This document shows, one piece after another, positions 1-34,293 of a stretch of DNA of 36,007 nucleotides (its first letter is position 1; the number at the start of each line of letters is the position of its first letter). This DNA comes from a bacterium (GTDB lineage Bacteria > SAR324 > NAC60-12): assembly GCA_965233585.1 (NCBI GenBank), contig CBDDTI010000109.1, forward strand, positions 1 through 36,007, read 5' to 3'. The notes under the pieces are model-generated. The model saw nothing but the letters and a program-made list of their open reading frames with translations. It searched no databases and was not told the origin of the DNA. The translations under genes and the position numbers were made by a program.

Positions 1-1480
1 TGCCAAACTTCGTGCTTATGCGGATTGGACATTTGGCATGTCTTTGACCCGTGCGATGTCTCTGAAAGCAGGTCAGACATTGCACATTGGCAGGGTTTCT
101 ACTCCGACTTTAAATGCGATTGTCAAGCGATGCAGAGAACATGAGACTTTTGTCCCTCGTGAGTTTCAGGTGCTAACAGCTAGTTTTGGAGAGGTGAAAC
201 TCTCCTCTGATGAACTGAAGCCTGAACAGATGGAACAGTTAAAACTTCCTGTTGAGCAAGAATTAGTATTGTCCATAGAAAAAGAAGTCAAAGAAATTGC
301 TCCTTTGCAGTTTTTCTCTCTGGAGACTTTACAGCAGGAAGCAAACAGAGTGTTTTCTTTCACTGCAGATGAGACTCTGAAAATAGCTCAAAGTCTGTAT
401 GAATCTCAACTGATCACTTACCCAAGAACAGATTCTAAACACTTACCTAGTGACTTTGACAAGATGAGCATCAAGAGCATTTTTATCATTCATCAAAAGT
501 TGTTTGTGGATTACACAGAAAGCAAGCGATTCTTTGATTCTAGCAAAGTAGAAGACCATCATGCCATCATTCCCACAGAACAAGTAGCCTCTTTGGAAGA
601 TGAAAAGACTAGGGAGTTGTATGAGTTGATTTGTGCCAGATTTTTCCAAGCGTTTCAACCTCCTGCTCAAGTAGAAACTCTTAAAATCTCATCTTGTTTT
701 GATGGAATTGAGTTAAAAGGGAGTTTAGGTAGAGATGTGATATTAGGTTGGAAAGCTCATTACCCTTATGTCTCTGTCAACTCTGATGAGTGGCTAGAGT
801 TCCAAGATGGGCAAAGTGTTCAGGCTTGTCTTGATTTAGAGAGGAGGACAACCAAACCCCCTGCTTTGTTCAATGATGCCTCCATTTTGGGATTTATGAA
901 GAATCCAAAATCAGAATCTGACGAAAAAACCAGCAACGGCATAGGCACTCCTGCCACCCGTGCAGGAATCTTAAAAGAATTGCAAAACAGGGGCTACACT
1001 TTGCACAAAGGCAAAAGCATTGTTGCCACTGACAAAGCCTACACGCTCATTGATGCCACGCCTGTTGCCACTCTCAAAAATCCAGACATCACTATTGCCT
1101 TAGAAAAGCTGTTTGATTCCCTGAAGAAAGGAACAATCAGTTATGAACAAGCCAAGTGTCAGATGCAAGAGACCTTACAAGTTTTGATACAAGACGTCCT
1201 TAAACTGCCAACTCAAATAAACAAAGACTCAAAAAGCTATGGTCTTTGTCCTGTGTGTGCAGAGCCTGTGCTGTATGGCAAATATGGGCTTTACTGCAAG
1301 AACAAGGATTTTTCTTTGCCAATTTCTTTTTGTGGCAAGAAGATTCAAAGTCATTGGAAAACTTTGATGAAAGGTCAGCAGACGCCTCTTATCAAGGGTT
1401 TTCAATCCAAAGCAGGAAAAGCCTTTGATGCTTTTCTTGTTCTCAATGACAACAAAATTCAATGTTTGTTTAATAACTAA
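1..1480 (+). CDS. topB: DNA topoisomerase III, C-terminal part (full protein about 647 aa)
   Basis: Type IA motifs GRVSTPTL, LITYPRTDS (catalytic Tyr), DHHAIIPT and GIGTPATRA. C-terminal Cys ribbon and GFQSKAGKAFDA repeat. Confidence 0.95.
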   Translation, partial: AKLRAYADWTFGMSLTRAMSLKAGQTLHIGRVSTPTLNAIVKRCREHETFVPREFQVLTASFGEVKLSSDELKPEQMEQLKLPVEQELVLSIEKEVKEIAPLQFFSLETLQQEANRVFSFTADETLKIAQSLYESQLITYPRTDSKHLPSDFDKMSIKSIFIIHQKLFVDYTESKRFFDSSKVEDHHAIIPTEQVASLEDEKTRELYELICARFFQAFQPPAQVETLKISSCFDGIELKGSLGRDVILGWKAHYPYVSVNSDEWLEFQDGQSVQACLDLERRTTKPPALFNDASILGFMKNPKSESDEKTSNGIGTPATRAGILKELQNRGYTLHKGKSIVATDKAYTLIDATPVATLKNPDITIALEKLFDSLKKGTISYEQAKCQMQETLQVLIQDVLKLPTQINKDSKSYGLCPVCAEPVLYGKYGLYCKNKDFSLPISFCGKKIQSHWKTLMKGQQTPLIKGFQSKAGKAFDAFLVLNDNKIQCLFNN

Positions 1481-6994: not shown

Positions 6995-7084
6995 TTAGCT
7001 TTTAATCGCTTTTTTTCTTTCTAAGATGAAAAGAGTGATGACTGTGATCCCAACCACACCTGTCATTATCATATAAAGTATCAT
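6995..7084 (-). CDS. Small single-TM protein B, cassette copy 2 (29 aa)
   Basis: MILYMIMTGVVGITVITLFILERKKAIKS, a paralog of 6675-6782. Confidence 0.6.
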   Translation of the reverse strand: MILYMIMTGVVGITVITLFILERKKAIKS

Positions 7085-7118
7085 TTTTGATTCCTCATAA
7101 AATAGACAACCATCAGTA

Positions 7119-7226
7119 TTATTTAGAGTAACCTAAAAGCGTCTTTTTATTTTCCATGACAAGACTGATGAGATAACCAGCTCCTGCAATGTTTCCACCA
7201 AGTAACAACAATAAATATTCTTTCAT
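7119..7226 (-). pseudogene. Small membrane protein A, cassette copy 2, apparently truncated
   Basis: MKEYLLLLLGGNIAGAGYLISLVMENKKTLLGYSK*. The remnant tail (LMVVYFMRNQK*) lies in another frame and ends in ATGA at 7081-7084. Confidence 0.55.
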
Positions 7227-7324
7227 TTTTAAGGTTCTAAATCTTTTTCATCACATAATATCCTTAAACAAGAAAATATATCAAAAAGACATAATAACAA
7301 TACTGTTATCATATTTTTTTGATA

Positions 7325-9360: not shown

Positions 9361-9945
9361 CTAATCTAGCTTGGTGACTGAATTGTATTCGGTCACTTCC
9401 AGTCTGAGTGGATTGATGACATCCACATTTTCTATTCCTAATCTTATATCGTTTTCTGGGAATTGAGTCAAGAGTTTCCACTGTATCAGTGCGACTTTCT
9501 TTTCAATGTTTTCATCAGTCTGACTAATATACTCCATTTGAATTAAGTTGTCATCTAATTTTTCAGTTGAGATGATTTTAATTTGAACAATTTGATTGGA
9601 TTGTTTGAATCGTCTCCATTTAGAGAATAAGAAAGGATTTGTGAATGCTTTGAGATTTTCTAAATCCCTTCTTTCATGGAGTAAGATGAATGTTTTAAGA
9701 TATTTCTGAATGATGAAATCATCACCAGACGTCAATCCATCTTGAACGGATTGGATTTGTTGGATGTGTTGGTTTTCGTAGAGATAGACCTTTTGTGTAT
9801 TGATTTGTCTTGATAGATAGCGATTGGATATAGATTGATAGACAATTCCAGCTAAAGCAATCAGACAAGCAGAGATGAGAATCTTGGTAATGGCTTTTTG
9901 GACTTCCCAAGTTTCAAAAGAGAGTTGAAATCTGTGAATTTTCAT
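9361..9945 (-). CDS. VirB8-like protein (paralog 2)
   Basis: Single N-terminal TM, YLKTFILLHER helix, C-terminal INPLRLEVTEY resembling the VirB8 NPLGF.V..Y motif. Confidence 0.6.
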   Translation of the reverse strand: MKIHRFQLSFETWEVQKAITKILISACLIALAGIVYQSISNRYLSRQINTQKVYLYENQHIQQIQSVQDGLTSGDDFIIQKYLKTFILLHERRDLENLKAFTNPFLFSKWRRFKQSNQIVQIKIISTEKLDDNLIQMEYISQTDENIEKKVALIQWKLLTQFPENDIRLGIENVDVINPLRLEVTEYNSVTKLD

Positions 9946-15595: not shown

Positions 15596-17380
15596 TTAAA
15601 CAGAGATATTGGGTTCAATGTCTTTGTTGTCTTTCTTGGGTAAATTTGTTTTGACTTCAGGAGTTTTGGGGACAGGATTGCCCACTTCAAAATCTTTCTG
15701 GTCTTGTTGGAATGATGGCATGTTGTCGTAAAGATCAAGAGGCGGTCTCTCATCATTTTGAGCAAAGGAAGGCATGTTGTCATAAAGATCAAGGGGCGGT
15801 CTCTCATCATTTTGAGCAAAAGAAGGCATGTTGTCATAAAGATCAAGAGGAGGTAAATCCATCGGAGGCCTGTCTGATGCCTTCTCTTTTTGAAGTTGTT
15901 GATTGGTCTCTTTTTCATTGGTTTTCTGCTTGGATTGTTGAGCAAAGTTTTGAGAACGTTCATGCGTCTTTTGAGGAACAGACTCAGATTGAGCAGAAAA
16001 AGAAGGAAAAGCAGGCATGTTTGATGGAGCTTGTGGCGTCTGCTGTGATGCACTTTTTTTCTCTTTCATATCTGATGAAGTGTGAGAAGAGTGAGATGCT
16101 TCCTGTGTCTGCTGTTGCTGTGAAGCAGTAGAAGATTGAGAACTTTGAACAGTTTCAGAGGAGGCAAGAGTGCCTTCAATGATTCTATCTGCACCAGTCG
16201 CACCAGAACCTGATTGAGAAGATGACCCTTGAGTTTGGGGGTTGTCATCAGGCATCTTTTGTACAGAAAAAGGAGGCGGTTCAGGTTGTCCAAGATTCCT
16301 GTATTCTTCAACAGGAATATGAGGCAGGAACACAGGCGGTGCAGGGAGCTGAGGAACATCACCAGCACCAGATGACTCTCCCCCACCATCTGAACGCATT
16401 CCTCCTAGCATTTCTTTAGCACTGCTGATGCCTGCTTTTCCTGCACCATAAGCAGCCTTGCCAGCCCTCGCTGCACTGGCAGCAGCAGAAATGCCTTTGG
16501 CAGTCGCACCAATGATGTCTCTCCCAATCTGAAATGGATTGCTTCCCTTGCTAGAGACATTGCCCCGAGTCAAAGAATTAGCAATCTCTGCCACCTTAGA
16601 AAACGAAAAACAAGCAATCAATCCAATTAAAATAATAATCCCTGAAGGAATAGGAGAAGAGGAGTTTTCAAGACTTTGGTAGTCCAAAGCCAACCTAAAA
16701 ATCAACTCATTGACAAGATAAATAATACAGGTCGCAATGACTGGATACAACATAACAGTCAGCACAGCACGAAACCATTCAAAAAACACATTCCTACTCT
16801 CTGAAAAGGCAGAGAGCATAATGACCGCAGGAGAAAACAGCATATAAATCACTACATTAGACAAAAAAGCAAACTGCACCAGCCAATACTGTAAGTAAGT
16901 GATATACACCACCAAAGCAGCAAGATAGATGATGAACGCATCATAAGTTGGCAAGACTGACATCCAGCGGTCATCATTGCCTGCTTGTTCTATCAGATTG
17001 TCATAAATCATACTGTACAGCTGGCTCATGTTAGTCTCTGACGGAATTTTGAGACCCAAATTGTTGGCATTGGCAGAAATAATAAATTCAGCAATTTCTT
17101 TGGGGGTGTCAAACACCAGAGCAATCAAATACTCTTCATAAGACTCCATATTCGTTATGAAGTTAAAATTCATAGAAAGCAGGAGACCTGTGAACATGGT
17201 TTTGTAGCCGACTGTGCCGATTCCCGTTTTAAACGCAAAGACAAAGTAAAACAGAATCGCCAAGTGAAACCCTGCCGAAAAAATAGGCTGTGCTGCATGA
17301 CCAAACACCGAATACAAACCCAAAATCACCTCTATAAGAGTTGTCTCAAAAATCTCATAAACTTCATTTCCTCTAAACAT
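15596..17380 (-). CDS. virB6: VirB6/TrbL family protein with long low-complexity C-tail
   Basis: Multiple TMs; SPAVIMLSAFSESRNVFFEW TrbL/VirB6 motif; Ala/Gly-rich then Ser/Gln-rich tail. Confidence 0.85.
   Translation of the reverse strand: MFRGNEVYEIFETTLIEVILGLYSVFGHAAQPIFSAGFHLAILFYFVFAFKTGIGTVGYKTMFTGLLLSMNFNFITNMESYEEYLIALVFDTPKEIAEFIISANANNLGLKIPSETNMSQLYSMIYDNLIEQAGNDDRWMSVLPTYDAFIIYLAALVVYITYLQYWLVQFAFLSNVVIYMLFSPAVIMLSAFSESRNVFFEWFRAVLTVMLYPVIATCIIYLVNELIFRLALDYQSLENSSSPIPSGIIILIGLIACFSFSKVAEIANSLTRGNVSSKGSNPFQIGRDIIGATAKGISAAASAARAGKAAYGAGKAGISSAKEMLGGMRSDGGGESSGAGDVPQLPAPPVFLPHIPVEEYRNLGQPEPPPFSVQKMPDDNPQTQGSSSQSGSGATGADRIIEGTLASSETVQSSQSSTASQQQQTQEASHSSHTSSDMKEKKSASQQTPQAPSNMPAFPSFSAQSESVPQKTHERSQNFAQQSKQKTNEKETNQQLQKEKASDRPPMDLPPLDLYDNMPSFAQNDERPPLDLYDNMPSFAQNDERPPLDLYDNMPSFQQDQKDFEVGNPVPKTPEVKTNLPKKDNKDIEPNISV
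15709..15853 (-). repeat. 54-bp tandem repeat in the virB6 tail (about 2.7 copies)
   Basis: PPLDLYDNMPSFAQNDER unit; GGCATGTTGTC at 15717, 15771 and 15825. Confidence 0.9.
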
Positions 17381-17417
17381 TTTTTTTACTTTTGTGACAA
17401 AGATTAATCAAACAGTT

Positions 17418-17453
17418 ATCTACAACAGTAGAAATTAAGTCAGTCTATCAGAC
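17418..17453 (-). CRISPR. Solitary type V-A CRISPR repeat upstream of virB6
   Basis: ATCTACAACAGTAGAAATTAAGTCAGTCTATCAGAC is 33/36 identical to the array repeat; the AATTTCTACTGTTGTAGAT handle is intact. Confidence 0.92.
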
Positions 17454-17500
17454 TTGATTTTTGATAACGAAAGTAGTAATTTGATAGAAATTTAGAAACG

Positions 17501-17674
17501 ATGAAAAACATCTTGTTACAACAAATGAACGCCTGCCTTGCAGGCATTGGTGGCTGTCTGGCTTATTTTGCAAGTGAAAAAACAAAGTACATAGACCAAG
17601 CAGTTTATCTCACACTCGGATTTGCCATTGCTTATCTAGTTATATTTTTAATCTACACAAAAGAAGACTCATGA
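17501..17674 (+). CDS. Small membrane protein A, cassette copy 4 (57 aa)
   Basis: MKNILLQQMNACLAGIGGCLAYFASEKTKYIDQAVYLTLGFAIAYLVIFLIYTKEDS; shares the SEKTKY motif. Confidence 0.75.
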   Translation: MKNILLQQMNACLAGIGGCLAYFASEKTKYIDQAVYLTLGFAIAYLVIFLIYTKEDS

Positions 17675-17781
17675 CAGGAGAAACCGCCATCTACGTTGCT
17701 TCAGGCATCTTTTTTATGAGTGTTTTGATTACCATCATCAAAACACTCAAACAACAAAAACGAAACAAAACAACTACTTAA
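17671..17781 (+). CDS. Small single-TM protein B, cassette copy 4 (36 aa)
   Basis: MTGETAIYVASGIFFMSVLITIIKTLKQQKRNKTTT; ATGA overlap with A. Confidence 0.65.
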   Translation: MTGETAIYVASGIFFMSVLITIIKTLKQQKRNKTTT

Positions 17782-18850
17782 ACAAGGGACCTGAGTCATA
17801 TCTCTTGTAGTATTTGCTTTGTCTGACTTTTTCCAACAAAGCATCAAAGTTAGGAGTCGCAGACTGATGTTGGTCAGCACTTTTACCCTTTGCTCGCAAG
17901 TCACGGATTTGCTGTTCAGTCAGGGACAGCTTCGCCGCACGTTGCAGTTGCCGCACGTTTCGTTTCTGCTTAGCGTGCAAGTTGATGCCGTTCAAATAAA
18001 TCCCCTCCAGATTTTTGTCAATCCTGTGCAAGATTTTAAGCATTTGCCACTGAAGCATCATCTGTGTATCTAATGTTCCTTTTGTTCCCTCAGTACTCGG
18101 GTCATTTCCAGACACCCGATCAGCTAGAATCTCCCACTCTTTGTCTTTGAGTTTTTTATAGTCTTCGTCCAGATTTTTCATGTATCTTGAATTGATGCGA
18201 TTAAACTCACCTCGCTCCCTCTTGAGCTTGTCCATTGCTTCGTCATAGTAGGTCTTGACTAAAGCACACTTGCCTTTGACAAGCATGCCCAGCTGGTTAG
18301 TGCCTGCTTTGCGATGCACACGTTTTTTCAAGTAAAGCCCTCCCTCGGGATCCACCTCTAACGTGGTATAGGTAGATTCCCTAGAGTCTACGTCATTGTT
18401 AAATCCAAGCTCTTTTGCTATCAGCCCCTCCCCTATCTTTTCAGGATCCTTGCCGTAGAAGTAACGTGCATTCCACATGTTTTCAGTTTTCTGATAAGCA
18501 TCTACATCAGAAAAAACACACTCTGAGTCTTTTTTGAACTGCTCAATCGCAGCCTGAAACTCCCCCGGAGTTTTTTCTAGCTCATCCTTGAGTTGCTTAA
18601 TTTCCCCCATCACCCCAAAAACAGAGTTGTAGACTTTTGCCATTTCGCTCCTCATGTTCATAATCTCGTCCTGTACATTCATCATGGTCATCACTGCTCT
18701 TCTGCTAGTTTTCACTTGCTCCCTCAAATTCGCAACAGATTTAACCGCCTGCTCAAAATTTGAGGGATCGAAGACGTATTGAACACCCTGACCGTAAACT
18801 ACTGAAGGAATGACAGCGACCAAAAAAATATATTTAATTTTCATTAACAT
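17774..18850 (-). CDS. virB5: VirB5/TrbJ-like minor pilin
   Basis: Signal peptide then VFDPSNFEQAV, helical coiled coil, located upstream of virB6. Confidence 0.7.
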   Translation of the reverse strand: MLMKIKYIFLVAVIPSVVYGQGVQYVFDPSNFEQAVKSVANLREQVKTSRRAVMTMMNVQDEIMNMRSEMAKVYNSVFGVMGEIKQLKDELEKTPGEFQAAIEQFKKDSECVFSDVDAYQKTENMWNARYFYGKDPEKIGEGLIAKELGFNNDVDSRESTYTTLEVDPEGGLYLKKRVHRKAGTNQLGMLVKGKCALVKTYYDEAMDKLKRERGEFNRINSRYMKNLDEDYKKLKDKEWEILADRVSGNDPSTEGTKGTLDTQMMLQWQMLKILHRIDKNLEGIYLNGINLHAKQKRNVRQLQRAAKLSLTEQQIRDLRAKGKSADQHQSATPNFDALLEKVRQSKYYKRYDSGPLFK

Positions 18851-19214
18851 ACAAATCTCCTTTTGAATTTAATTGATTTGAACTTAATCCACCACTAGGA
18901 CTAACTTCTCTATAATTAGCAATTCCATCTGCGCCAACAGAACAGGCTTTTTCTTTTGCTTCTTTCATGGCTTCTTCTACTGGTTTATTACTACAACCAC
19001 AGAAAATCCCTGCTTGCAACTGCTGAAAAATAGTCACCTCCCCTATTTTTTTCTGTCCCTCTTGCAGAGGTTCACGCGAAATGGGAATGTCACAGGTTTT
19101 AGGCTTTGGTTGGTAGTTTTCATCAGTCATCTGGCTGTACAGAGCTGGCTGGGAACACCCCGCCATCAGGGCGGTTGCACAAGTGGCAGTGATGATTGAT
19201 TTGATTGTTTTCAT
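18834..19214 (-). CDS. Small lipoprotein next to virB5 (candidate entry/surface exclusion protein)
   Basis: Lipobox MAGC; KIGEVT...KEKACSVGADGI resembles the YbjQ/RcsF-like fold. The exclusion role is inferred only from position. Confidence 0.7.
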   Translation of the reverse strand: MKTIKSIITATCATALMAGCSQPALYSQMTDENYQPKPKTCDIPISREPLQEGQKKIGEVTIFQQLQAGIFCGCSNKPVEEAMKEAKEKACSVGADGIANYREVSPSGGLSSNQLNSKGDLYVNEN

Positions 19215-19269
19215 AAAATTCCCTTGTAAAAAAAATAATTAAAAAAAGTAAAGAGTTATTTCTTATTAT

Positions 19270-19802
19270 ATCTACAACAGTAGAAATTAAATAAGTCTAT
19301 TAGACCTCTTGCAGAGGTTCACGGGAGACGGATCTACAACAGTAGAAATTAAATAAGTCTATTAGACAGCAAAATATAGAGTAAATGTCTGGTATCTACA
19401 ACAGTAGAAATTAAATAAGTCTATTAGACCAGCTCTTTATTCTAAGATGACAGATATCTACAACAGTAGAAATTAAATAAGTCTATTAGACCATTCCACA
19501 TGTTCTCTGTTTTCTGAATCTACAACAGTAGAAATTAAATAAGTCTATTAGACGAGTTGCTTAATCTCTCCCATGACACATCTACAACAGTAGAAATTAA
19601 ATAAGTCTATTAGACAATTTTACGGCTAAGCCTCTTGGCTGATCTACAACAGTAGAAATTAAATAAGTCTATTAGACACATGTTTTCAGTTTTCTGATAC
19701 GCATATCTACAACAGTAGAAATTAAATAAGTCTATTAGACTGACATTCCTGTCTCTCGTGAACCCTATCTACAACAGTAGAAATTAAATAAGTCTATTAG
19801 AC
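19270..19802 (-). CRISPR. Type V-A (Cas12a-type) CRISPR array 1: 9 repeats, 8 spacers of 26-27 nt
   Basis: Identical 36-bp repeats, minus strand GTCTAATAGACTTATTTAATTTCTACTGTTGTAGAT, at 19270, 19332, 19394, 19456, 19518, 19580, 19642, 19705 and 19767. The 3' 19 nt is the canonical Cas12a handle. Confidence 0.98.
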
Positions 19803-19945
19803 CGATAACACGCTTGCAACCCGCACATCTTGGTCAAAAAACAAAATCAAAAGTGTAAATTTTGAGCAATTTCTGCCATTAAGACTCAGGTTTGCAATTT
19901 TTTAAGAAAGAAACGATCCATCAGCGGTATAGCTTCATCCTCATC
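19803..19945 (-). promoter_or_regulatory. CRISPR leader-containing segment, copy 1 (143 bp)
   Basis: Identical to 20294-20436; lies 5' of the array in the crRNA orientation. Confidence 0.8.
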
Positions 19946-20293
19946 ATCTACAACAGTAGAAGTTAAATAAGTCTATTAGACATTATCATCAGTAGTGGGT
20001 CTATACTTCGATCTACAACAGTAGAAATTAAATAAGTCTATTAGACCCAGTACCAGAAGATGACCCTTGAGATCTACAACAGTAGAAATTAAATAAGTCT
20101 ATTAGACGAAAGAAATGATCAAGCTATCCAGTGATCTACAACAGTAGAAATTAAATAAGTCTATTAGACATTAAAGCGTTTTATGTTAGATTCATATCTA
20201 CAACAGTAGAAATTAAATAAGTCTATTAGACGATTTTGATTTTCATAATTTTCCTTGATCTACAACAGTAGAAATTAAATAAGTCTATTAGAC
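19946..20293 (-). CRISPR. Type V-A CRISPR array 2: 6 repeats, 5 spacers of 25-29 nt
   Basis: Repeats at 19946 (one A>G change), 20011, 20072, 20134, 20196 and 20258. Confidence 0.97.
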
Positions 20294-20461
20294 CGATAAC
20301 ACGCTTGCAACCCGCACATCTTGGTCAAAAAACAAAATCAAAAGTGTAAATTTTGAGCAATTTCTGCCATTAAGACTCAGGTTTGCAATTTTTTAAGAAA
20401 GAAACGATCCATCAGCGGTATAGCTTCATCCTCATCATCTACAACAGTAGAAGTTAAATAA
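20294..20461 (-). promoter_or_regulatory. Leader copy 2 plus truncated 25-bp variant repeat (20437-20461)
   Basis: Exact duplicate of 19803-19970; ATCTACAACAGTAGAAGTTAAATAA, then similarity stops. Confidence 0.85.
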
Positions 20462-20500: not shown

Positions 20501-21478
20501 TTAAAGGTTTTGAATTTGTTGTTTGGGTAGTCCAGTGGCAATGCTGATGGTATCAATGTCTAATCCTTGAGCCAGCATCTTTTTGGCAATTTCAATAGCT
20601 TTTTGTTGTTCTCCTTCTTGCCGTCCTTTTTCTATGCCTTTTTCCATTCCTTTTTCCATTCCTTGCTGGAGACCTTCTTCTTTGCCTTCTTGCCGTCCTT
20701 TTTCCATTCCTTTTTCCATTCCTTTCTCCATTCCTTTTTGAAGACCTTTTTGGAATCCCTGTTTAAGTTGGAGTTGTTCAGCACCTTTGATGATGGCAAC
20801 AAACTCCTGCCTTTTGTAGATGACTTCTAGTTCTTCAGGAGACAGCCCTGCTTGATTGACCAGATGTAAGGCTTCTTGAATGGTTGGATTAAAAGTTTGG
20901 GGAATCTCTTGTAAGCCTTCAGCGTGCTTGATGCAATAAATCCACTCTTCTTGCAACTCTTTGAGTTCATCTAAAGACTTTTGAAACTTGGGGAGTTCTA
21001 CAAAGATCAATTCAATGTCATCAGAATACGGGCTTAAGTTCTTCTTCTCTAACAATTTGAAAACATTGATGATTTGGTCATTGTTTTCAAACATGATGAA
21101 GTCAAGGATATTGAGAGCAATGACAGGATTCAGCAGATGAAACTCCTGCCCTTTCTCTAGTTGCATAGAGTAGTTTTTACAAGCATTGTAAAGGATTCTT
21201 TTCTCAAAACCTTCATGGTTGATGACCTGCATCTCAATCAGGACTTGCTGACCTGTGTCTAGTTTCGCTTTGACATCAACAAAGGTGATTTTCATACCTT
21301 CTAGCAAAGGCGGGTTGTAAGGGTCTTGAATGGTCAGGTCTTGAATTTTCTGCTGATGAGGAAACTCAATGAGCGAGTTAAGAAAGCTGATGAGTAGCTT
21401 CTTATTCTTCTCATCTCCAAACAGCATCTTAAAAGCATAGTCTGTTTTAAGGTCTAAAAACTTCATCATTTTTGGCAA
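20501..21478 (-). CDS. Rpn family PD-(D/E)XK nuclease (PDDEXK_2)
   Basis: DLKTDYAFKMLFG, VDVKA, IEMQ, FVELPKF; C-terminal (EKGM)n repeats and IAKKML..GL..DTISIATGL. Confidence 0.92.
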   Translation of the reverse strand: MPKMMKFLDLKTDYAFKMLFGDEKNKKLLISFLNSLIEFPHQQKIQDLTIQDPYNPPLLEGMKITFVDVKAKLDTGQQVLIEMQVINHEGFEKRILYNACKNYSMQLEKGQEFHLLNPVIALNILDFIMFENNDQIINVFKLLEKKNLSPYSDDIELIFVELPKFQKSLDELKELQEEWIYCIKHAEGLQEIPQTFNPTIQEALHLVNQAGLSPEELEVIYKRQEFVAIIKGAEQLQLKQGFQKGLQKGMEKGMEKGMEKGRQEGKEEGLQQGMEKGMEKGIEKGRQEGEQQKAIEIAKKMLAQGLDIDTISIATGLPKQQIQNL

Positions 21479-21489
21479 GGGTTAGAGGT

Positions 21490-21588
21490 TTATTTTTGCT
21501 CTCTACGGTTTAAAACTTGTTTGACAGCAATGTACGAGGCAACTACGCCAATCAGAGTCAACAAGATGGTTGTTAAAGTGATGATCAT
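21490..21588 (-). CDS. Small single-TM protein B, cassette copy 5 (32 aa)
   Basis: MIITLTTILLTLIGVVASYIAVKQVLNRREQK; ATGA overlap with A. Confidence 0.65.
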   Translation of the reverse strand: MIITLTTILLTLIGVVASYIAVKQVLNRREQK

Positions 21589-21773
21589 TTTTTGTCCTCA
21601 CAAATAACAATGATGAGATAAGCAGTGGCACAACTTGAATAAAGAATGAGACCACCACTGAAAATAACCCAGCTTTCAAAAAGATACTTTGTTTTTTCGC
21701 TGCCAATATAATTGACAGCAGAAGCAATAGCACCCCCAGCCATTCCAATTTGCAGAAGTAAAAAGTTTTTCAT
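21585..21773 (-). CDS. Small membrane protein A, cassette copy 5
   Basis: MKNFLLLQIGMAGGAIASAVNYIGSEKTKYLFESW...ICEDKK. Confidence 0.75.
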   Translation of the reverse strand: MKNFLLLQIGMAGGAIASAVNYIGSEKTKYLFESWVIFSGGLILYSSCATAYLIIVICEDKK

Positions 21774-21808
21774 AGGCAATTTTTGAAAAGATTGTAAAGG
21801 CTCATTAT

Positions 21809-22848: not shown

Positions 22849-25142
22849 ACCACTGCCCGTAAATACTCTTGCATGAGTTCTTGAGGAGAAAGGTTTTGTT
22901 TTTGGAGTGTTTCAATGGCTCTGACGTGAGTTTGAGAGGAATTGAAAACGTGTAGATATTGTTTTAAAAAAGCTAAGTTAACTTGGACAATGTCAGTAGA
23001 ACCGCCCGCTGTTTTGACCATGACGGCTCTGGTTTTAGGGTCTGTGTTTTTCAGCCAAGCCAGTTCGTCTTGATTGAGTCCAATGCCGTCTAAGTAGGCA
23101 TCAGGATTCAATCCCTCACGAGAAGGAAACAGAATAAACTTGGCAAAGTTAGCAAGATTTTGTTTTCCGATGGGGTGCAAATAGAGATGATCTAAAGACT
23201 GCACGGCTGCGACAAAAACACCATTGAGTTTTCGCAACTCCTGCAACATTCTGGCAGCGATTTTAGCAAAGACCTCAGATTCTAAATATCTGCGAAACTC
23301 ATCAACAAAAATGAGGCGAGGAGTGCCATCGCAAGACTTAAAGAACCGATGCGAGAGATAAGACGCAAACAGCCCCAGCTCCTCAGGTCTCTCTAAGAGA
23401 TGCGTGAAATCAAAACACAACCAGTCAGCCTCAAGAGGCACTGGCTGTCCAGAAAACAAACCTGACTTTGTGCCAGTAGAGCCGTATTGTTTCAGTTTCT
23501 CATACAACGGCTCTCCTTTTTGAGCAATGGTGTGAAGGAGCTGATCCACGGTGCGACTGGACAAGTCCCAATCCAGAATCTGCGATGCCCCTGCAATGAT
23601 TTTGAGCTTGTCTTGCTCACTTTGCACCTGTGCCATGTCACACAAGAAATCAATCAAGAATCCTGAATCCTCTTTGTCCAAATCAAACGGATTGAGCGAC
23701 AAGCCTCCTTGCTCAAAGTTTAAATACTTGCCACCAAGTAACAATGTAGAAACTTTGAGACCTTGCAGTTGGTCAAAAGCGAGCATCTTCATTCCTTTGT
23801 ACTTAGTGGCTTGTGCCAGTAAAAAACTAATCAAAGTGGTCTTACCTGACCCTGACGAGCCAACGACTAAAGTATGCCCTAAGGCACTTTGTGAAGAATC
23901 TTTGTGAAAGCAAAAGTTGTAGATAGACCCTGACGCACTAGAGAAGTGAGTCAACGGCTCACTTCCCCACGAACAAGACGTCAATCCCTCTTGAGAAGAA
24001 GGAAACGCGACAAAGCAACTGGCATTTTGTGATGTGATTTTTGTGTTTCGTTTGTTTGCCTTGCGTTTGGGTGGAAACTGCGAATAAAACAAAGATTCTT
24101 TGAGCAAGGTGTCATTACCCAGCAAATAGCCGTTCTGGTCTAAGAATTTTCTAATTTTCAAGCAATCCTGCTTGTTCTGACTTTCGGAGTGAGAAATGAC
24201 TTGAATCGTGAAGTAATGTTGAATGAGCTGAATCAAGTCAGCCTGCAAGTTGTTTTGAAGCTCATAGTATTCTTGCAACACAAAGTCTGCATACTTGACG
24301 AATTGATGAGTGAACCGAATCTTGTCAGCCACGAACGCTAAGGCTTTCTCTTTCTCCATGTAGTCAAAATGATGAGCCACCATCATCTCCACAGGTAGCT
24401 CAAGCAATCGGTCAAAGACAGGTTGTGCGGCATAGTCTCCATAGTTGCGAATCGTCATAAAAGACGACACCCGATTGGTGTTGAGATAGTGCAAATAAGG
24501 GTCAAAGCGAGACATCTTGATTGGCGTGTTGAGAATCCACTCATCCAAAAGTTGCTTGTTGAATTGCAAAGGGTTTTCAAAACACTCTGCATTGATGAGC
24601 GTGGCTAGAAACTGCAACAACACAGAACCTTTGAGCCTGATACAACCAAAGTCTTCAAATGCTGACAAGAAATAAGTTGCCACTTGCTCCAGACGTTCCA
24701 CATCGGATGCAATGTTCCGCAACTTCTTGATGGGATTGGTCTTGCTAGTGAGCATGAGATAATGCTGTGTTTCATAAACCGATTGAAACGACCCTGCCCA
24801 AGATTGAGCGATGGTTTGGACGTTGACATTGTTAAATTCACTGACTTTCAGATCACTCTGTTTCTGAAAGCGAGTGTGAAAGATAGAGATGACAAGGTCA
24901 TCATTATTAGCAAAGGTAGAGTTTCTGACTTGATACAACATCTGTTTTCTGCTTTCGGGAATGGCATTGTAATCCACCCCTGCAAGACTCATCACACAAG
25001 ACACAGTCTCATCTTTGTTCAAAATCAAGGCATCAGAGAACAAGCACAACATCGGCAGTTGCGGACTTTCTAACCCTTGCCAATTCTTGAAAGGATTCAA
25101 CCACTGACTTTCGGAAAACTCTTTTTTCAAAAACTCCAGCAT
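22845..25142 (-). CDS. virB4: VirB4 ATPase
   Basis: GHTLVVGSSGSGKTTL Walker A, IFVDEF Walker B, LRKLNG, 765 aa. Confidence 0.95.
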   Translation of the reverse strand: MLEFLKKEFSESQWLNPFKNWQGLESPQLPMLCLFSDALILNKDETVSCVMSLAGVDYNAIPESRKQMLYQVRNSTFANNDDLVISIFHTRFQKQSDLKVSEFNNVNVQTIAQSWAGSFQSVYETQHYLMLTSKTNPIKKLRNIASDVERLEQVATYFLSAFEDFGCIRLKGSVLLQFLATLINAECFENPLQFNKQLLDEWILNTPIKMSRFDPYLHYLNTNRVSSFMTIRNYGDYAAQPVFDRLLELPVEMMVAHHFDYMEKEKALAFVADKIRFTHQFVKYADFVLQEYYELQNNLQADLIQLIQHYFTIQVISHSESQNKQDCLKIRKFLDQNGYLLGNDTLLKESLFYSQFPPKRKANKRNTKITSQNASCFVAFPSSQEGLTSCSWGSEPLTHFSSASGSIYNFCFHKDSSQSALGHTLVVGSSGSGKTTLISFLLAQATKYKGMKMLAFDQLQGLKVSTLLLGGKYLNFEQGGLSLNPFDLDKEDSGFLIDFLCDMAQVQSEQDKLKIIAGASQILDWDLSSRTVDQLLHTIAQKGEPLYEKLKQYGSTGTKSGLFSGQPVPLEADWLCFDFTHLLERPEELGLFASYLSHRFFKSCDGTPRLIFVDEFRRYLESEVFAKIAARMLQELRKLNGVFVAAVQSLDHLYLHPIGKQNLANFAKFILFPSREGLNPDAYLDGIGLNQDELAWLKNTDPKTRAVMVKTAGGSTDIVQVNLAFLKQYLHVFNSSQTHVRAIETLQKQNLSPQELMQEYLRAVV

Positions 25143-30450: not shown

Positions 30451-33400
30451 ATGGAGAACACCATGAAAAAACTCACGTCCTGCCTCGTACTCATCTTTTA
30501 TGGATTCACGATGGTCGCAGAAACCTTACAAATCACACTGACCCAAGAGACTTTTTTGAAAGACAAGGAGCAAGCACTAGGAGATGTGTTGTTCCAGCAG
30601 AAGACGTTGTCGTTTAGTGGAACACTTGCTGTGGAGCAGTTGAACGGGACACAGCGGATTAAAATCAACTGGACAAAAGTCAATGGCAAGTCCGCTCCCA
30701 GTGAATTTTTGTCTCAATTTAAGACTCAAAGCCAAGAATTACCCAGAGGGTTCAAGTTCAATATCACAGGAGACTTTGAATCGCTCAATGATCCCAGTCT
30801 AGCAGTGGCAGTCGTAGATGAAGTGGAAGATTCAGGTGTTTCAGATTCATCTGTTCCCTCTGCTTCAAATTCTGCTCCAAAAGAAAGTCAGGGATTAACA
30901 GACTCTGCTGACAATCCTGATGCTGCAACTGCAACCTCTCCTGTTTCCATTCCAAATCAACAGGACATGACTCAAAATCAAGGCACTCAAAGCACTCCAG
31001 AAAGGTCTTTCCAAAAAGAAAAACAAGAAGAAAAGAATGATGATGATGAAAAAGATACTCCTGAACAACAAGAAGAAAAAAGAAATGATGCAACAGCAAT
31101 AGACACGTTGACAGAGACAACTCATGAAACTTGTGATGCTCAAATCACTGATGTTGCTTACATCACAAGGAAGCAAAAAGTGTTGTCCTATTCTTCAGGC
31201 AAGAAGGTCAGACAAGAGTGCCAGAATGACAGAACCTTTGCTTTGCTGGAAACTTTTCAAGGGTGCAGTCCCAGACATGACTTTCAGAACAAACGAACCA
31301 TCATGCAGAAGAAAAAATACTATGTCTCTGATGCAGGCTCACGAGTGGACATTGTCAACTGTACAGACTCCAAAATCATCTATCCTCATTTACAAGCTGT
31401 GTTTGACTGCACTCCTGTCTTTGATGCAGGTCAGCAGAGAGCCTACACCACCAAAAAAACCTACTATGTGGACGGCACTGGTTCTATTCAGACCATTACA
31501 GACTGTCGCATGGCTTCTGATGACTTTCAGACCTTCACTCAAAATGATTATCTCATAGAGTATTCTGATAAAGACCGAATAGACCATGCTAACAAAGTGG
31601 TCTATCGCAGAATGAGGCATTACATCAAAGTCGGAGACCAGAAGAAAGTGATTGGTTCGTGGCAAGATGACACTGCTAAACCGATGCCGATTGTCAGGGA
31701 ATATGACAAATGTAGTTACTTTCACAACAAACAAGCCCAGAAGTCATACAGGCAATATGCAGATGTCTATTACAAGAACGGACAAAGGCAAGTGGTCATT
31801 GCTTGTCAAAAAGACCCAAACAACTACTTTGCTCACATCTCTGATTCCAAATACTGTGACCCAATGGTCAACAATCGCAAAATGGTGTTGCGGAAGTCTG
31901 TCTATTTCTTTGACCAAAACGGACAGAGAAAGAACGTAGAAGATTGCAAAGTCTCTTCTGTGGAACACGATTTGACTCCTGCAGACATTCAAAAAGACTT
32001 CTCAGTTTGTAAGGCTCATTTGGATTTTGCTGCCAAACGTGCCTATCCCAAATATAGAGAATTTGTCCAAATCAAAGAAAGCAAGACCTACATCTCTAAC
32101 TGCCAAAAAGACAGCAACTTCTTTGACATGGTAGAGACTGATCAAGGATGTTCTCCTCGTTTTGATTTCAATCAAATGCAAGCCATCATCAAAAAAAGAC
32201 TCAAATACAATGATAGCCAGAAGGATGTCTTTGTCTCTGCTTGCTTGGAGACTTTTAGGCGGTATGTTCTCAAAAATGATGCTGCCATGTGCCGTGATCG
32301 GCTTTCTGAAGACAAGATGAGCATCATCAAGTTTCAAGCTGTGGTTTACACCGATGACAAAGGAGTTAAAAAAATTGCTCAAACTTGTCAATCTACTCAT
32401 CACTCCACTCCCATTGATCCCAAGAAATTGGTCAAAAAATACACCTGTGCAGACCTCTATGATGTCCCCAACATGAAGGTTTACAGACAATACAAAAACT
32501 ATTTAAATCTAGGAGGAAAAGAAGAAGAAATTAGCAGTTGTCTGGTAGATAAGAGCCAGTTTTATCCCATTGAGAGAGATTTTGCTGATTGTAAGAATGA
32601 TTACAACACCTTCACGATGAAAGCCATCTTAAAAAACAAACTGTTTTACAACACAGGCATTGAGAAAAGATACATCAGTGCTTGCTTGACCTCCAATATA
32701 CAATATGACCTCCAAAAGACCACTGGAACTTGTCCACCCAAGTTGTCCCTCAATAATTCTATGTTGGTCGCTCAACAAGAAATCTATTACATTGACCCCA
32801 ATACCAAGAAACGAGTGGTTGTTTTGCACTGTCACGAAACTGATCAACTCACAGCGATTCCAGATTCTATGATCATAAAAAAATATGCAGAATGTCCTGT
32901 CTTTTGGAATCCAAAAACTTTGAAAGTGGTCAAACAATACAGGAAGTATGTCAAGTTAGATGGACAGACTGAAACCAAGATTTCTGATTGTGTCTTTGAC
33001 CCTGCCAAAACCTACAACTCTCAATGGGATTACTCCAAATGCTCTGTGAGAGTGGACACAGTAGCAGGAAAAGTCAGAGAACTTGCCAAAGCCTATTATA
33101 ATGACGGGGCGCAGGATCATTATGTCTCTGATTGTGTAGAGACTGGAACGTTGTATGCGATCAAAGACAATCACAACATTTGCCAACCCATCAAACTGGC
33201 TAATCCGACCAAAGTCATCTTGCAGAAAAGACTTTATTACAATGACCGTTTAGGAATTGTCACGTGGCTTGGACAATGTGAGCCTTCTTTGACAGTAGAT
33301 TCAGGAAAAGAAAAGTTATGTGCATCGTCTCCTATCAACTACAATGACAATGTCAACCAAGCGTTTTTAAACACGAAATGGATCTATCAGCACGGTGCCA

Positions 33401-34293
33401 GTGAGATTGAGTTGGTGTCTTGCAACGTGAAAGCACAACGTCCGTCTTCTACTTATACTCAAAGACTCTGTGGTTGGCAGCATGCCAGAGCGTCTTCTTA
33501 TGGAGAACGAGGTTATTCCAAACCTAAGATTGAGTCGTATATTCAATTTCCTCAAACCTCTCTCAATGTTTTACTAGATGCCAATGTAGTTGGAACGAAG
33601 AAATACATAGTTCCCACCAAAAAATGTGATGTTTCTAACATTGAAGTCAATCACTCCACTAGACATGTCTTTGCCAAATATTGGCATCAAAACTTCTTTA
33701 GGATTATTAACCAAACTCATACCAGACAAGTCACCTCCTCTATTCCTATCACTCAAAGGTATCTTTATGCAAAAGTAAATTGTAGTAGGTATGCTCATTC
33801 AGATTCACAAACAGACTACCCCTACAGGATGCGTTATTACTATCCTGAGAGTCAGACTCATTCTTCTCCGAGGCGCGTGGCAAGTTGTGGTGCTTATAGC
33901 GATATTTATAAAACAAAGACTGTTGGATACACCTATCATTTCTCTCAAACCAATGAGTATGAAATTCAGTGTGGTTCACGCTTTAGAAAAGCGATCATTT
34001 ACTCCTACCCGACTAATTACAACATTGCCCAACAAAGTTCTAGCTCCTTTGGCAATGATTACGATCACATCAAATTAGATGCCTATGCTAAAACCAAGTG
34101 GGGAACGTCTTTTAAGGTATACAAAAGTGCGGGAAGTAGTTCTTTTGACTCCAGAAATGCACATTTAAATTCTGCTCCCAGTCCCTCCAATCCGTCTCTC
34201 AGTAACCTTTGCAATACCTCCAAGATAGAAGGAGATCAAGATTCTTACGGAAACTGGAGGGTGGATAATGGTCTTGATGGAAAAAGGAACTGA
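30451..34293 (+). CDS. Large secreted Cys-rich repeat protein (putative adhesin) inside the virB9-virB11 operon
   Basis: Signal peptide, S/Q/E-rich linker, about 15 repeats of roughly 50 aa with C-x(~30)-C, unique C-terminus. Confidence 0.8.
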   Translation: MENTMKKLTSCLVLIFYGFTMVAETLQITLTQETFLKDKEQALGDVLFQQKTLSFSGTLAVEQLNGTQRIKINWTKVNGKSAPSEFLSQFKTQSQELPRGFKFNITGDFESLNDPSLAVAVVDEVEDSGVSDSSVPSASNSAPKESQGLTDSADNPDAATATSPVSIPNQQDMTQNQGTQSTPERSFQKEKQEEKNDDDEKDTPEQQEEKRNDATAIDTLTETTHETCDAQITDVAYITRKQKVLSYSSGKKVRQECQNDRTFALLETFQGCSPRHDFQNKRTIMQKKKYYVSDAGSRVDIVNCTDSKIIYPHLQAVFDCTPVFDAGQQRAYTTKKTYYVDGTGSIQTITDCRMASDDFQTFTQNDYLIEYSDKDRIDHANKVVYRRMRHYIKVGDQKKVIGSWQDDTAKPMPIVREYDKCSYFHNKQAQKSYRQYADVYYKNGQRQVVIACQKDPNNYFAHISDSKYCDPMVNNRKMVLRKSVYFFDQNGQRKNVEDCKVSSVEHDLTPADIQKDFSVCKAHLDFAAKRAYPKYREFVQIKESKTYISNCQKDSNFFDMVETDQGCSPRFDFNQMQAIIKKRLKYNDSQKDVFVSACLETFRRYVLKNDAAMCRDRLSEDKMSIIKFQAVVYTDDKGVKKIAQTCQSTHHSTPIDPKKLVKKYTCADLYDVPNMKVYRQYKNYLNLGGKEEEISSCLVDKSQFYPIERDFADCKNDYNTFTMKAILKNKLFYNTGIEKRYISACLTSNIQYDLQKTTGTCPPKLSLNNSMLVAQQEIYYIDPNTKKRVVVLHCHETDQLTAIPDSMIIKKYAECPVFWNPKTLKVVKQYRKYVKLDGQTETKISDCVFDPAKTYNSQWDYSKCSVRVDTVAGKVRELAKAYYNDGAQDHYVSDCVETGTLYAIKDNHNICQPIKLANPTKVILQKRLYYNDRLGIVTWLGQCEPSLTVDSGKEKLCASSPINYNDNVNQAFLNTKWIYQHGASEIELVSCNVKAQRPSSTYTQRLCGWQHARASSYGERGYSKPKIESYIQFPQTSLNVLLDANVVGTKKYIVPTKKCDVSNIEVNHSTRHVFAKYWHQNFFRIINQTHTRQVTSSIPITQRYLYAKVNCSRYAHSDSQTDYPYRMRYYYPESQTHSSPRRVASCGAYSDIYKTKTVGYTYHFSQTNEYEIQCGSRFRKAIIYSYPTNYNIAQQSSSSFGNDYDHIKLDAYAKTKWGTSFKVYKSAGSSSFDSRNAHLNSAPSPSNPSLSNLCNTSKIEGDQDSYGNWRVDNGLDGKRN

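Follow-up and report, generated by a model that had tools for sequence, protein, structure and literature searches.

What can a single repeat of the Cas12a type do when it stands by itself in front of a conjugation gene? The question is raised by a 36,007-nt contig (CBDDTI010000109.1, here C109) of a SAR324 bacterium, one of the 747 contigs of a 12-Mb assembly (GCA_965233585.1); the whole contig was analyzed and is referred to as the window. On its minus strand, at 17453..17418, the window carries a solitary type V-A (Cas12a) repeat of 36 nt, GTCTGATAGACTGACTTAATTTCTACTGTTGTAGAT, in the leader of virB6, a gene of a type IV secretion system (T4SS). Cas12a processes its own CRISPR RNAs (crRNAs), for which a lone repeat upstream of a guide suffices, and the roles known for solitary CRISPR repeats from phages and plasmids are those of RNA decoy and of Cas-repressing guide. 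Our preferred reading, which we hold tentatively and with somewhat less than even confidence, is that the lone repeat may be an orphan one-repeat crRNA unit in the virB6 leader with a decoy-like occupancy of Cas12a, and that processing there would be a by-product.

The lone repeat was compared with the repeat of the CRISPR arrays that lie in the same window, GTCTAATAGACTTATTTAATTTCTACTGTTGTAGAT. The two were identical at 33 of 36 positions, and the three differences (repeat positions 5, 13, and 15) all fell in the 5' 17 nt, the part that processing removes. The 19-nt crRNA handle, AATTTCTACTGTTGTAGAT (17418..17436, minus strand), with its 5-bp stem TCTAC/GTAGA and its loop TGTT, was an exact match, and the full 36-bp repeat with an intact handle that an earlier note on this DNA had described was thus borne out. 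The handle hairpin was predicted in both the minimum free energy and the centroid fold of 17500..17370, while the 131-nt leader as a whole was not unusually structured (z-score 0.06) and 17200-17700 gave no Rfam match at E 1 or better. When up to 3 mismatches were allowed, the handle was present at 17 sites in the window against 0.01 expected from shuffles; 16 of these sites were located at 19270-20455, and the lone repeat was the sole remaining one. The nearest other repeat (19270-19305) was 1,816 nt away, and no second repeat-like sequence scoring at least 24/36 was found within 1.8 kb, so the element is not a two-repeat mini-array. A decayed second repeat about 60 nt upstream (17509..17474) was considered and rejected; it matched at 17 of 36 positions, by a hand count only. 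The term "solitary" used by the earlier note therefore holds for the distance to the nearest repeat but not for the replicon, which carries two arrays. The whole 12-Mb assembly outside the arrays was also scanned for sites of at least 24/36, with the reversed repeat as a control. The scan gave 39 sites and the control 50, with a control maximum of 26/36; three sites outside the arrays were above this maximum, scoring 33 (the lone repeat), 31, and 29. The lone repeat combines near-identity to the array repeat, a 3' handle in which an AAUU lead-in is followed by a 5-bp stem with a 4-nt loop, and a cognate Cas12a in the same assembly. Judged from its sequence, the element is certainly a CRISPR-derived Cas12a repeat.

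The gene downstream, virB6/trbL (15596..17380, minus strand, ATG at 17380..17378), encodes 594 aa and matched TrbL/VirB6 (PF04610, E 3.8e-9); its match to TIGR02783 (E 4.5e-7) was under the cut-off of that model. Protein searches gave one VirB6 homologue (44% identity), whose N-terminus likewise reads MFR, so the ATG is probably the true start. The gap between the lone repeat and this ATG was exactly 37 nt, with both on the minus strand, and the spacing given by the earlier note was correct to the nucleotide. The gap consists of a guide-like stretch of 24 nt 3' of the handle, AACTGTTTGATTAATCTTTGTCAC (17417..17394, minus strand), which belongs to the virB6 leader, and the last 13 nt of the leader, AAAAGTAAAAAAA (17381..17393, minus strand), which are A-rich and in which no GGAG-type ribosome site was seen by eye. 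No terminator-like site was found between 17417 and 17381. The region 16800-19296 showed no differences in contigs from four public runs, and no structural variant was present at the lone repeat; these runs came from one study and are thus not independent, and no RNA run was listed with them. The flanks of the lone repeat resembled no array leader or trailer. The handle was not found in the other 63 genomes of the order, the full repeat at up to 3 mismatches was not found in the other 87 genomes of the class, and the 5' variant of the repeat was not found in a viral contig collection. Against the plasmid database PLSDB, blastn with 80 nt of the repeat region gave chance matches only (E 0.6 or worse), and neither blastn of 15596-19300 nor tblastn of VirB6 detected a related plasmid. 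VirB6 relatives were likewise absent from the other 44 genomes of the family; VirB6 alone detected none in collections of genome and metagenome contigs, and the two-sequence alignment detected none there or in viral contigs.

The two ends of the window share 13 nt, and once this overlap was removed a type IA topoisomerase gene (35525..end joined to ..1480) spanned the junction; the overlap and the read-through together indicate a circular plasmid of about 35,994 bp. Its G+C content was 38.8%, in comparison with 39.7-40.7% for the large contigs. The plasmid has a conjugative gene set (relaxase, coupling protein, and VirB3-, B4-, B6-, B8-, B9-, B10-, and B11-type proteins) and also encodes a primase-ArdC fusion, ParA, and a PIN protein. 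No cas genes were found on it. The host Cas12a that the earlier note had supposed was located in the same assembly, on contig C745 (406982-411616, 1544 aa; PF18516, E 4e-86; Pfam domains RuvC_1, REC1, NUC, and PI), followed by cas4 and cas1. The same contig carries three arrays of 47, 69, and 129 repeats, and 240 of these 245 repeats were identical to the plasmid array repeat. Three of the 245 host spacers matched the plasmid with 2-3 mismatches, at 565..539, 24030..24005, and 9707..9681, where the positions of the protospacer adjacent motif (PAM) read TGAT, CATC, and ATTC (no TTTV); the genes concerned encode the topoisomerase, VirB4, and a 194-aa protein. By these matches the host has met, and has immunity to, the kin of the plasmid; the resident plasmid looks like an escaper.

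Some further observations were made on the host locus. Host spacers had perfect or 1-mismatch matches elsewhere in the assembly, none with TTTV (C747:994729-994755, C745:258859-258886, C746:814425-814449, and C746:51754-51778). Another C745 spacer, at about 403068, was identical over 24/24 nt to a short sequence present in very many copies (among the matches listed: C745, C746, C747, C729, C295, and others), and it seems that a dispersed genomic repeat was sampled as a spacer. Judged by eye, the 250-nt region upstream of cas12a (local, about 7020-7264) seems to contain a short open reading frame (ORF) on the opposite strand. On the plasmid, a 1280-aa ORF (30451-34293, plus strand) between the VirB10-type and VirB11-type genes had no Pfam, PHROGs, or NCBIfam match; it is of Cas12a-like size, yet no Cas12a Pfam domain was matched.

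The plasmid arrays sit within the T4SS gene block, on the virB6 strand, 1.8 kb upstream of the lone repeat. All their parts are on the minus strand: array 2 (19270..19802) has 9 repeats and 8 spacers, and is preceded by a variant repeat (AACTTC...) with a 143-nt leader copy (19803..19981); array 1 (20011..20293) has 5 repeats and 5 spacers, and is preceded by a second leader copy with a partial variant repeat before it (20294..20461). In total there are 14 array repeats, 2 variant repeats, and 13 repeat-bounded spacers. The stretch 20258-20461 is an exact 204-nt duplicate of 19767-19970, and across 163 nt the leader shared 91% identity with those of two arrays on the chromosome. The plasmid arrays could probably be extended by the adaptation genes of the host.

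We also investigated what the plasmid spacers match. Five of the 13 matched the plasmid's own 16209-19084 with 1-5 mismatches: 16233..16209 in virB6 (20/25), 18501..18475 (26/27), the overlapping 18494..18469 (24/26), 18615..18590 (22/26), and 19084..19059 (23/26). In the shuffled-spacer control, 0 of 260 came within 5 mismatches, the best being four cases with 6 mismatches. Two further spacers matched 19067-19092 and 19122-19147 with 6 and 7 mismatches. With these borderline two included, the targets fell in virB6, a 358-aa ORF (17774..18850, minus strand), and a 126-aa ORF (18834..19214, minus strand). The resident matches with 1-3 mismatches had GTAG, CTTA, or ATTC at the PAM position, and those with TTTV (TTTG, TTTC) had 4 and 7 mismatches, the seed included. 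Such a lack of a PAM or of a matched seed would be expected of spacers that were acquired from a diverged relative and that spare the plasmid bearing them. The plasmid arrays therefore appear to be aimed at a diverged relative of the plasmid, which would seem to be roughly 10% diverged. Host and plasmid thus both have guides against the kin of the plasmid. The plasmid appears to borrow the host Cas12a for inter-plasmid conflict. Inter-plasmid conflict through a borrowed host effector is a known theme (PMC11656645; PMC9071438).

The 24 nt that follow the handle were compared with the plasmid, the host genome, and the cas12a promoter, and no PAM-flanked target was found. On the plasmid the best match was 17/24, which is at chance level. 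In the 384 nt upstream of cas12a the longest PAM-proximal identity was 4-5 nt. TTTV followed by the first 9 nt of the guide occurred at 3 sites in the assembly, all outside C745 and C109; 40 shuffled guides averaged 6.7 such sites (maximum 27). No TTTV-flanked match of at least 10 nt was present in the 12 Mb. Relaxing the PAM to NTTV gave 5 matches of 10-12 nt in the assembly, again without any on the cas contig or on the plasmid. Seeds of at least 8 nt with any PAM numbered at least 1030 against a shuffled mean of 721 (range 139-1398), again at chance level. Cas-repressing RNAs have been called by a promoter site that has a PAM and pairs with 9 or more PAM-proximal nucleotides of the guide (10.1101/2024.10.29.618823), and here no such site stood out from chance. 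The regulatory crRNA-like guide that the earlier note had offered as one alternative found no support in these counts.

How the orphan unit would work can be put as follows. A transcript entering virB6 from upstream of 17453 would carry the lone repeat. The host Cas12a, which can probably cut and bind the repeat, would cut just 5' of the AAUUUCUACUGUUGUAGAU handle, leaving a new 5' end at about 17436-17437 on the minus strand, and would retain a crRNA-like RNA made up of the handle and the next 20-24 nt, which belong to the virB6 leader. The locus of the guide itself would be protected by the repeat, which lies where a PAM would be needed. As the guide has no other PAM-flanked target in the cell, the complex is predicted to be non-targeting. 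Such an RNA would occupy Cas12a like an RNA anti-CRISPR (Racr) or like the "extraneous" crRNA from a terminal repeat. As a side effect, the virB6 mRNA would gain a Cas12a-made, Cas12a-bound 5' end 37 nt before the start codon. In a described case, a unit of one repeat and one spacer-like sequence was processed by Cas12a to a 19-nt handle and a 21-nt guide, and a V-A unit with a mutated spacer still displaced some crRNA from Cas12a (10.1101/2024.10.29.618823). The orphan unit is favored by a handle that is exact far beyond chance, by the cognate Cas12a in the same assembly, by plasmid arrays that appear already to exploit that Cas12a, by the lack of a terminator-like site before the virB6 ATG, and by the lack of a resident target for the guide. 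As three of the 245 host spacers nearly match the plasmid, occupying Cas12a could pay. Cutting by Cas12a and a decoy role of the lone repeat are thus plausible on these grounds; the coupling of conjugation to Cas12a proposed in the earlier note may be regarded as possible from the position of the repeat.

Decayed copies of the repeat were also present elsewhere in the assembly. Three were found outside the arrays, at 31, 29, and 26 of 36 positions; each lies a short way upstream of a start codon (distances of 7, 16, and 17 nt) and points in the direction of the gene. Two precede paralogous Rpn-type nuclease genes and are thus not independent, and the third precedes an fmt-like gene. Their handles had 2 to 6 mismatches against 0/19 in the lone plasmid repeat. 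In two of the three the hairpin was destroyed, which means that Cas12a function cannot explain where they lie; the way in which such fragments arise, or the places in which they persist, is the more likely cause. The two Rpn loci, C746:595103-595189 and C746:351622-351657, involve Rpn-family (PDDEXK_2) genes that were 87% and 93% identical to the Rpn protein of the plasmid, each with a decayed Cas12a repeat 16-17 nt before the ATG. At one of these loci there is, in addition, a fragment of a leader, together with the same two small ORFs as are found ahead of the Rpn gene on the plasmid. Another Rpn gene (C745:389165-389995) is about 1.5 kb from the chromosomal array starting at 391545. These arrangements suggest that Rpn genes are linked to fragments of V-A arrays. 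The third copy, at C745:510516-510551, was 29/36 repeat-like with a broken hairpin, 7 nt before the ATG of a methionyl-tRNA formyltransferase-like ORF (judged from its N-terminus, by eye).

A number of results weigh against an orphan unit with a decoy-like role. No promoter-like site was found by a promoter scan of the minus strand of 17381-17620, and a looser scan gave one weak candidate, GTAACA and TAAATT with a 19-nt gap (17519..17489). An opposite-strand gene of 57 aa (17501..17674, plus strand) splits the upstream operon genes from the lone repeat, and two minus-strand terminator-like hairpins (17690..17671 and 17548..17528) are located between the upstream ORF and the repeat. Both hairpins lie antisense within the 57-aa ORF, and the regional count of such sites (4) was not elevated in comparison with shuffles (2.3 +/- 1.4). 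The lone repeat has no terminator of its own, unlike the described Racr and Cracr genes. The neighboring 57-, 358-, and 126-aa ORFs had no Pfam, PHROGs, or NCBIfam match, and the 358- and 126-aa ORFs had no PDB match pointing to an anti-CRISPR (Acr) protein, in searches that included no dedicated Acr library. The confinement of all three changes to the part outside the handle is weakly informative, as its chance probability is 680/7140 (about 0.10). The T-to-G change at repeat position 13 is common to the lone repeat and the relic at C745:510516-510551, so the changes may reflect a different source repeat and not selection on the handle. A decoy also agrees poorly with a plasmid that itself relies on active Cas12a for its 13 guides. 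Set against 16 other handles on the plasmid and 245 in the host, a further one would make little difference unless strongly expressed.

Several of these points would equally be expected of a silent relic, that is, a leftover of V-A array recombination which is untranscribed on the minus strand or without consequence, and harmless in an intergenic region. We consider this explanation rather unlikely. The absence of a convincing promoter, the possible terminators upstream, and the non-significant mutation pattern agree with it, and the three decayed copies (two beside Rpn genes, one of them with a leader fragment) indicate that fragments do scatter in this genome; the plasmid arrays themselves adjoin an Rpn gene. 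However, the perfect handle of the lone repeat differs from those of the chromosomal relics, which argues weakly against a relic, some transcription is likely with two gene starts within 120 bp, and an exact handle would be expected to be bound if it is transcribed at all. If bound, the repeat could also be a selected control of VirB6, in which Cas12a would cut the leader and stay on the 24 nt ending 13 nt before the AUG, so that translation or mRNA stability, and conjugation, would depend on free Cas12a. The close same-strand spacing with no terminator in between is in line with this, and so are the similar placement of the last array-2 repeat, 55 nt before the ATG of the next ORF of the T4SS block, and the stray copies, all of which lie just upstream of start codons in the orientation of the gene. 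Direct repeats placed in mRNAs can let Cas RNases govern expression, as described for a synthetic system (10.1101/2025.03.17.643761). However, two of the three stray copies have lost the hairpin and two are paralogous Rpn loci, no natural precedent was found in the literature searched, and the direction of the effect cannot be predicted from sequence; selected control is accordingly unlikely in our judgment. The wider form of this idea, in which the repeats before two T4SS segments (55 nt from the VirB7-like and VirB5-like ORFs, and 37 nt from virB6) would both act as sites of RNA processing and binding and free Cas12a would set the output of VirB6, and hence conjugation, appears distinctly improbable. 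If it were true, a natural Cas12a direct repeat would serve as an mRNA-leader switch that senses a Cas12a-bearing host.

The 24 nt might instead be used as a guide. As a one-guide weapon, a crRNA derived from the leader would cut any relative in the same cell whose copy of this leader follows a TTTV PAM; the bearer, with the repeat in place of the PAM, would be spared. The 24 nt lie inside 16209-19147, the region in which 5 to 7 of the 13 array spacers appear to target a relative, Cas12a needs only the upstream repeat, and mini-arrays that target relatives are known on mobile elements (PMC11656645). However, a clean 36-bp insertion would leave TCAA and not TTTV at the PAM position of the relative, the exact placement of a repeat next to native sequence is hard to account for, and the guide is AT-rich like intergenic DNA; such a weapon is, in our judgment, quite unlikely. 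A guide of the Cas-repressing (Cracr/CreR) type would pair partially with the promoter of cas12a or of another host gene and silence it without cutting. The order of one repeat-like and one spacer-like sequence is that of the V-A Cracr (10.1101/2024.10.29.618823). The defining match to a cas promoter was absent, as reported above, and no CreR-like element was found upstream of cas12a and no terminator after the guide; a Cas-repressing guide is thus close to refuted and, we consider, very improbable. The orphan unit with decoy-like occupancy remains the reading that we prefer.

The lone repeat was also compared with known systems. According to a survey, PLSDB plasmids carry 90 solitary repeats, and three Racrs of the V-A subtype were inhibitory to a Moraxella Cas12a (PMC10651486). 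Like the Racrs, including RacrVA1-3 (PMC10651486), the lone repeat is a single intergenic repeat on a mobile element that matches the subtype and the repeat of the host; the mobile element is a circular T4SS plasmid, the host has a V-A system, and the handle is identical. Unlike them, it is accompanied on its replicon, at a distance of 1.8 kb, by two arrays that look functional; it is placed within a T4SS gene leader, lacks a terminator of its own, and has no acr-like neighbor in family searches made without a dedicated Acr library (PMC10651486). In its predicted working it is most like a solitary repeat unit (SRU) or Racr, yet we do not class it as a Racr, as its solitariness is partial. CracrVA1 and the host CreR (10.1101/2024.10.29.618823; 10.1101/2023.03.10.532045) resemble it in having a repeat-like and then a spacer-like sequence with a predicted 19-nt handle and guide. 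They differ from it in that the guide of the lone repeat lacks a PAM-flanked match to a cas promoter and a terminator, and no host CreR was found that it could mimic.

The mini-arrays that target relatives (PMC11656645) are similar in that a mobile element uses the effector of its host through host-identical repeats, and the full arrays of the plasmid appear to target a relative; in contrast, the lone repeat is not followed by another repeat, and its 24 nt have no known target. By these comparisons the lone repeat is neither a Cracr or CreR nor a mini-array. Standalone repeats at V-A loci (10.1101/2023.03.03.530964) are likewise lone V-A repeats without an evident conserved target. However, those lie beside the host cas12a and resemble the arrays weakly, whereas the lone repeat is plasmid-borne, next to virB6, and has an exact handle; no repeat-like element was found in the 250 nt upstream of cas12a in the present host, unlike at many V-A loci in that study (10.1101/2023.03.03.530964). 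The extraneous crRNA described for Cas13 (PMC13187072) is similar in that its guide is whatever sequence follows the repeat, but two ORFs and a reversed gene separate the lone repeat from the nearest array.

We found no report of a natural Cas12a repeat in the mRNA leader of a conjugation gene in the literature searched; comparable examples from plasmids may be contained in the SRU tables of PMC10651486 and the Cracr tables of the preprint 10.1101/2024.10.29.618823. The novelty lies in the setting: a T4SS gene has an exact handle in its leader, and the plasmid that bears it also has arrays of the host type that appear to be directed against its own kin. The lone repeat sits in the leader of an essential conjugation gene, and the plasmid depends on the same host nuclease for its anti-plasmid arrays. 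If processed, the repeat would provide a natural example of an mRNA acted on by a Cas12a repeat and would offer a simple test of decoy, weapon, or gene switch. If inert, it would show how fragments of arrays become dispersed beside genes in a genome with many Rpn-type nucleases. Plasmid and host together can be viewed as a record of a three-way conflict, with host spacers against the kin of the plasmid, plasmid spacers against that same kin, and resident matches that all differ in the PAM or the seed.

The genes around the lone repeat were examined as well. The 57-aa membrane-like ORF is divergent from virB6, and the two bound the 120-bp intergenic region that contains the repeat. It has a paralogue on the plasmid, a 62-aa ORF at 21773..21585 (35% identity, E 1e-7), and a homologue on the chromosomal contig C295, and is therefore probably a genuine gene. 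The two paralogous small membrane-like ORFs (17501-17674, plus strand, and 21585-21773, minus strand) are in opposite orientation and bracket the arrays, the Rpn gene, and two backbone ORFs. The 358-aa ORF had no match in Pfam, PHROGs, NCBIfam, or PDB, with a weak lead to a VirB5-type T4SS family (PF07996, score 0.89). Its one homologue (53% identity) is encoded on a 25,987-bp contig that also encodes the VirB6 homologue, so this family-less ORF and the 126-aa ORF belong to the plasmid backbone. The 126-aa ORF, whose ATG is 55 nt beyond the last array-2 repeat on the same strand, gave a weak lead to a VirB7/TrwH-like N-terminus (E 0.21).

The arrays are immediately preceded, on their upstream side, by the Rpn-family gene (20501..21478, minus strand), which encodes a PD-(D/E)XK nuclease or putative transposase (PF12784, E 9e-49; TIGR01784, E 2.7e-51). 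Contigs from the public runs join 21473 to 21803 and omit 329 nt with the second small ORF, and they may represent further copies of the Rpn module. At 20591-20770, tandem units of 12 nt encode the C-terminal portion of the plasmid Rpn protein; the C746 copy has a much longer run of this unit (local 240-480), and the tract appears to be expanding.

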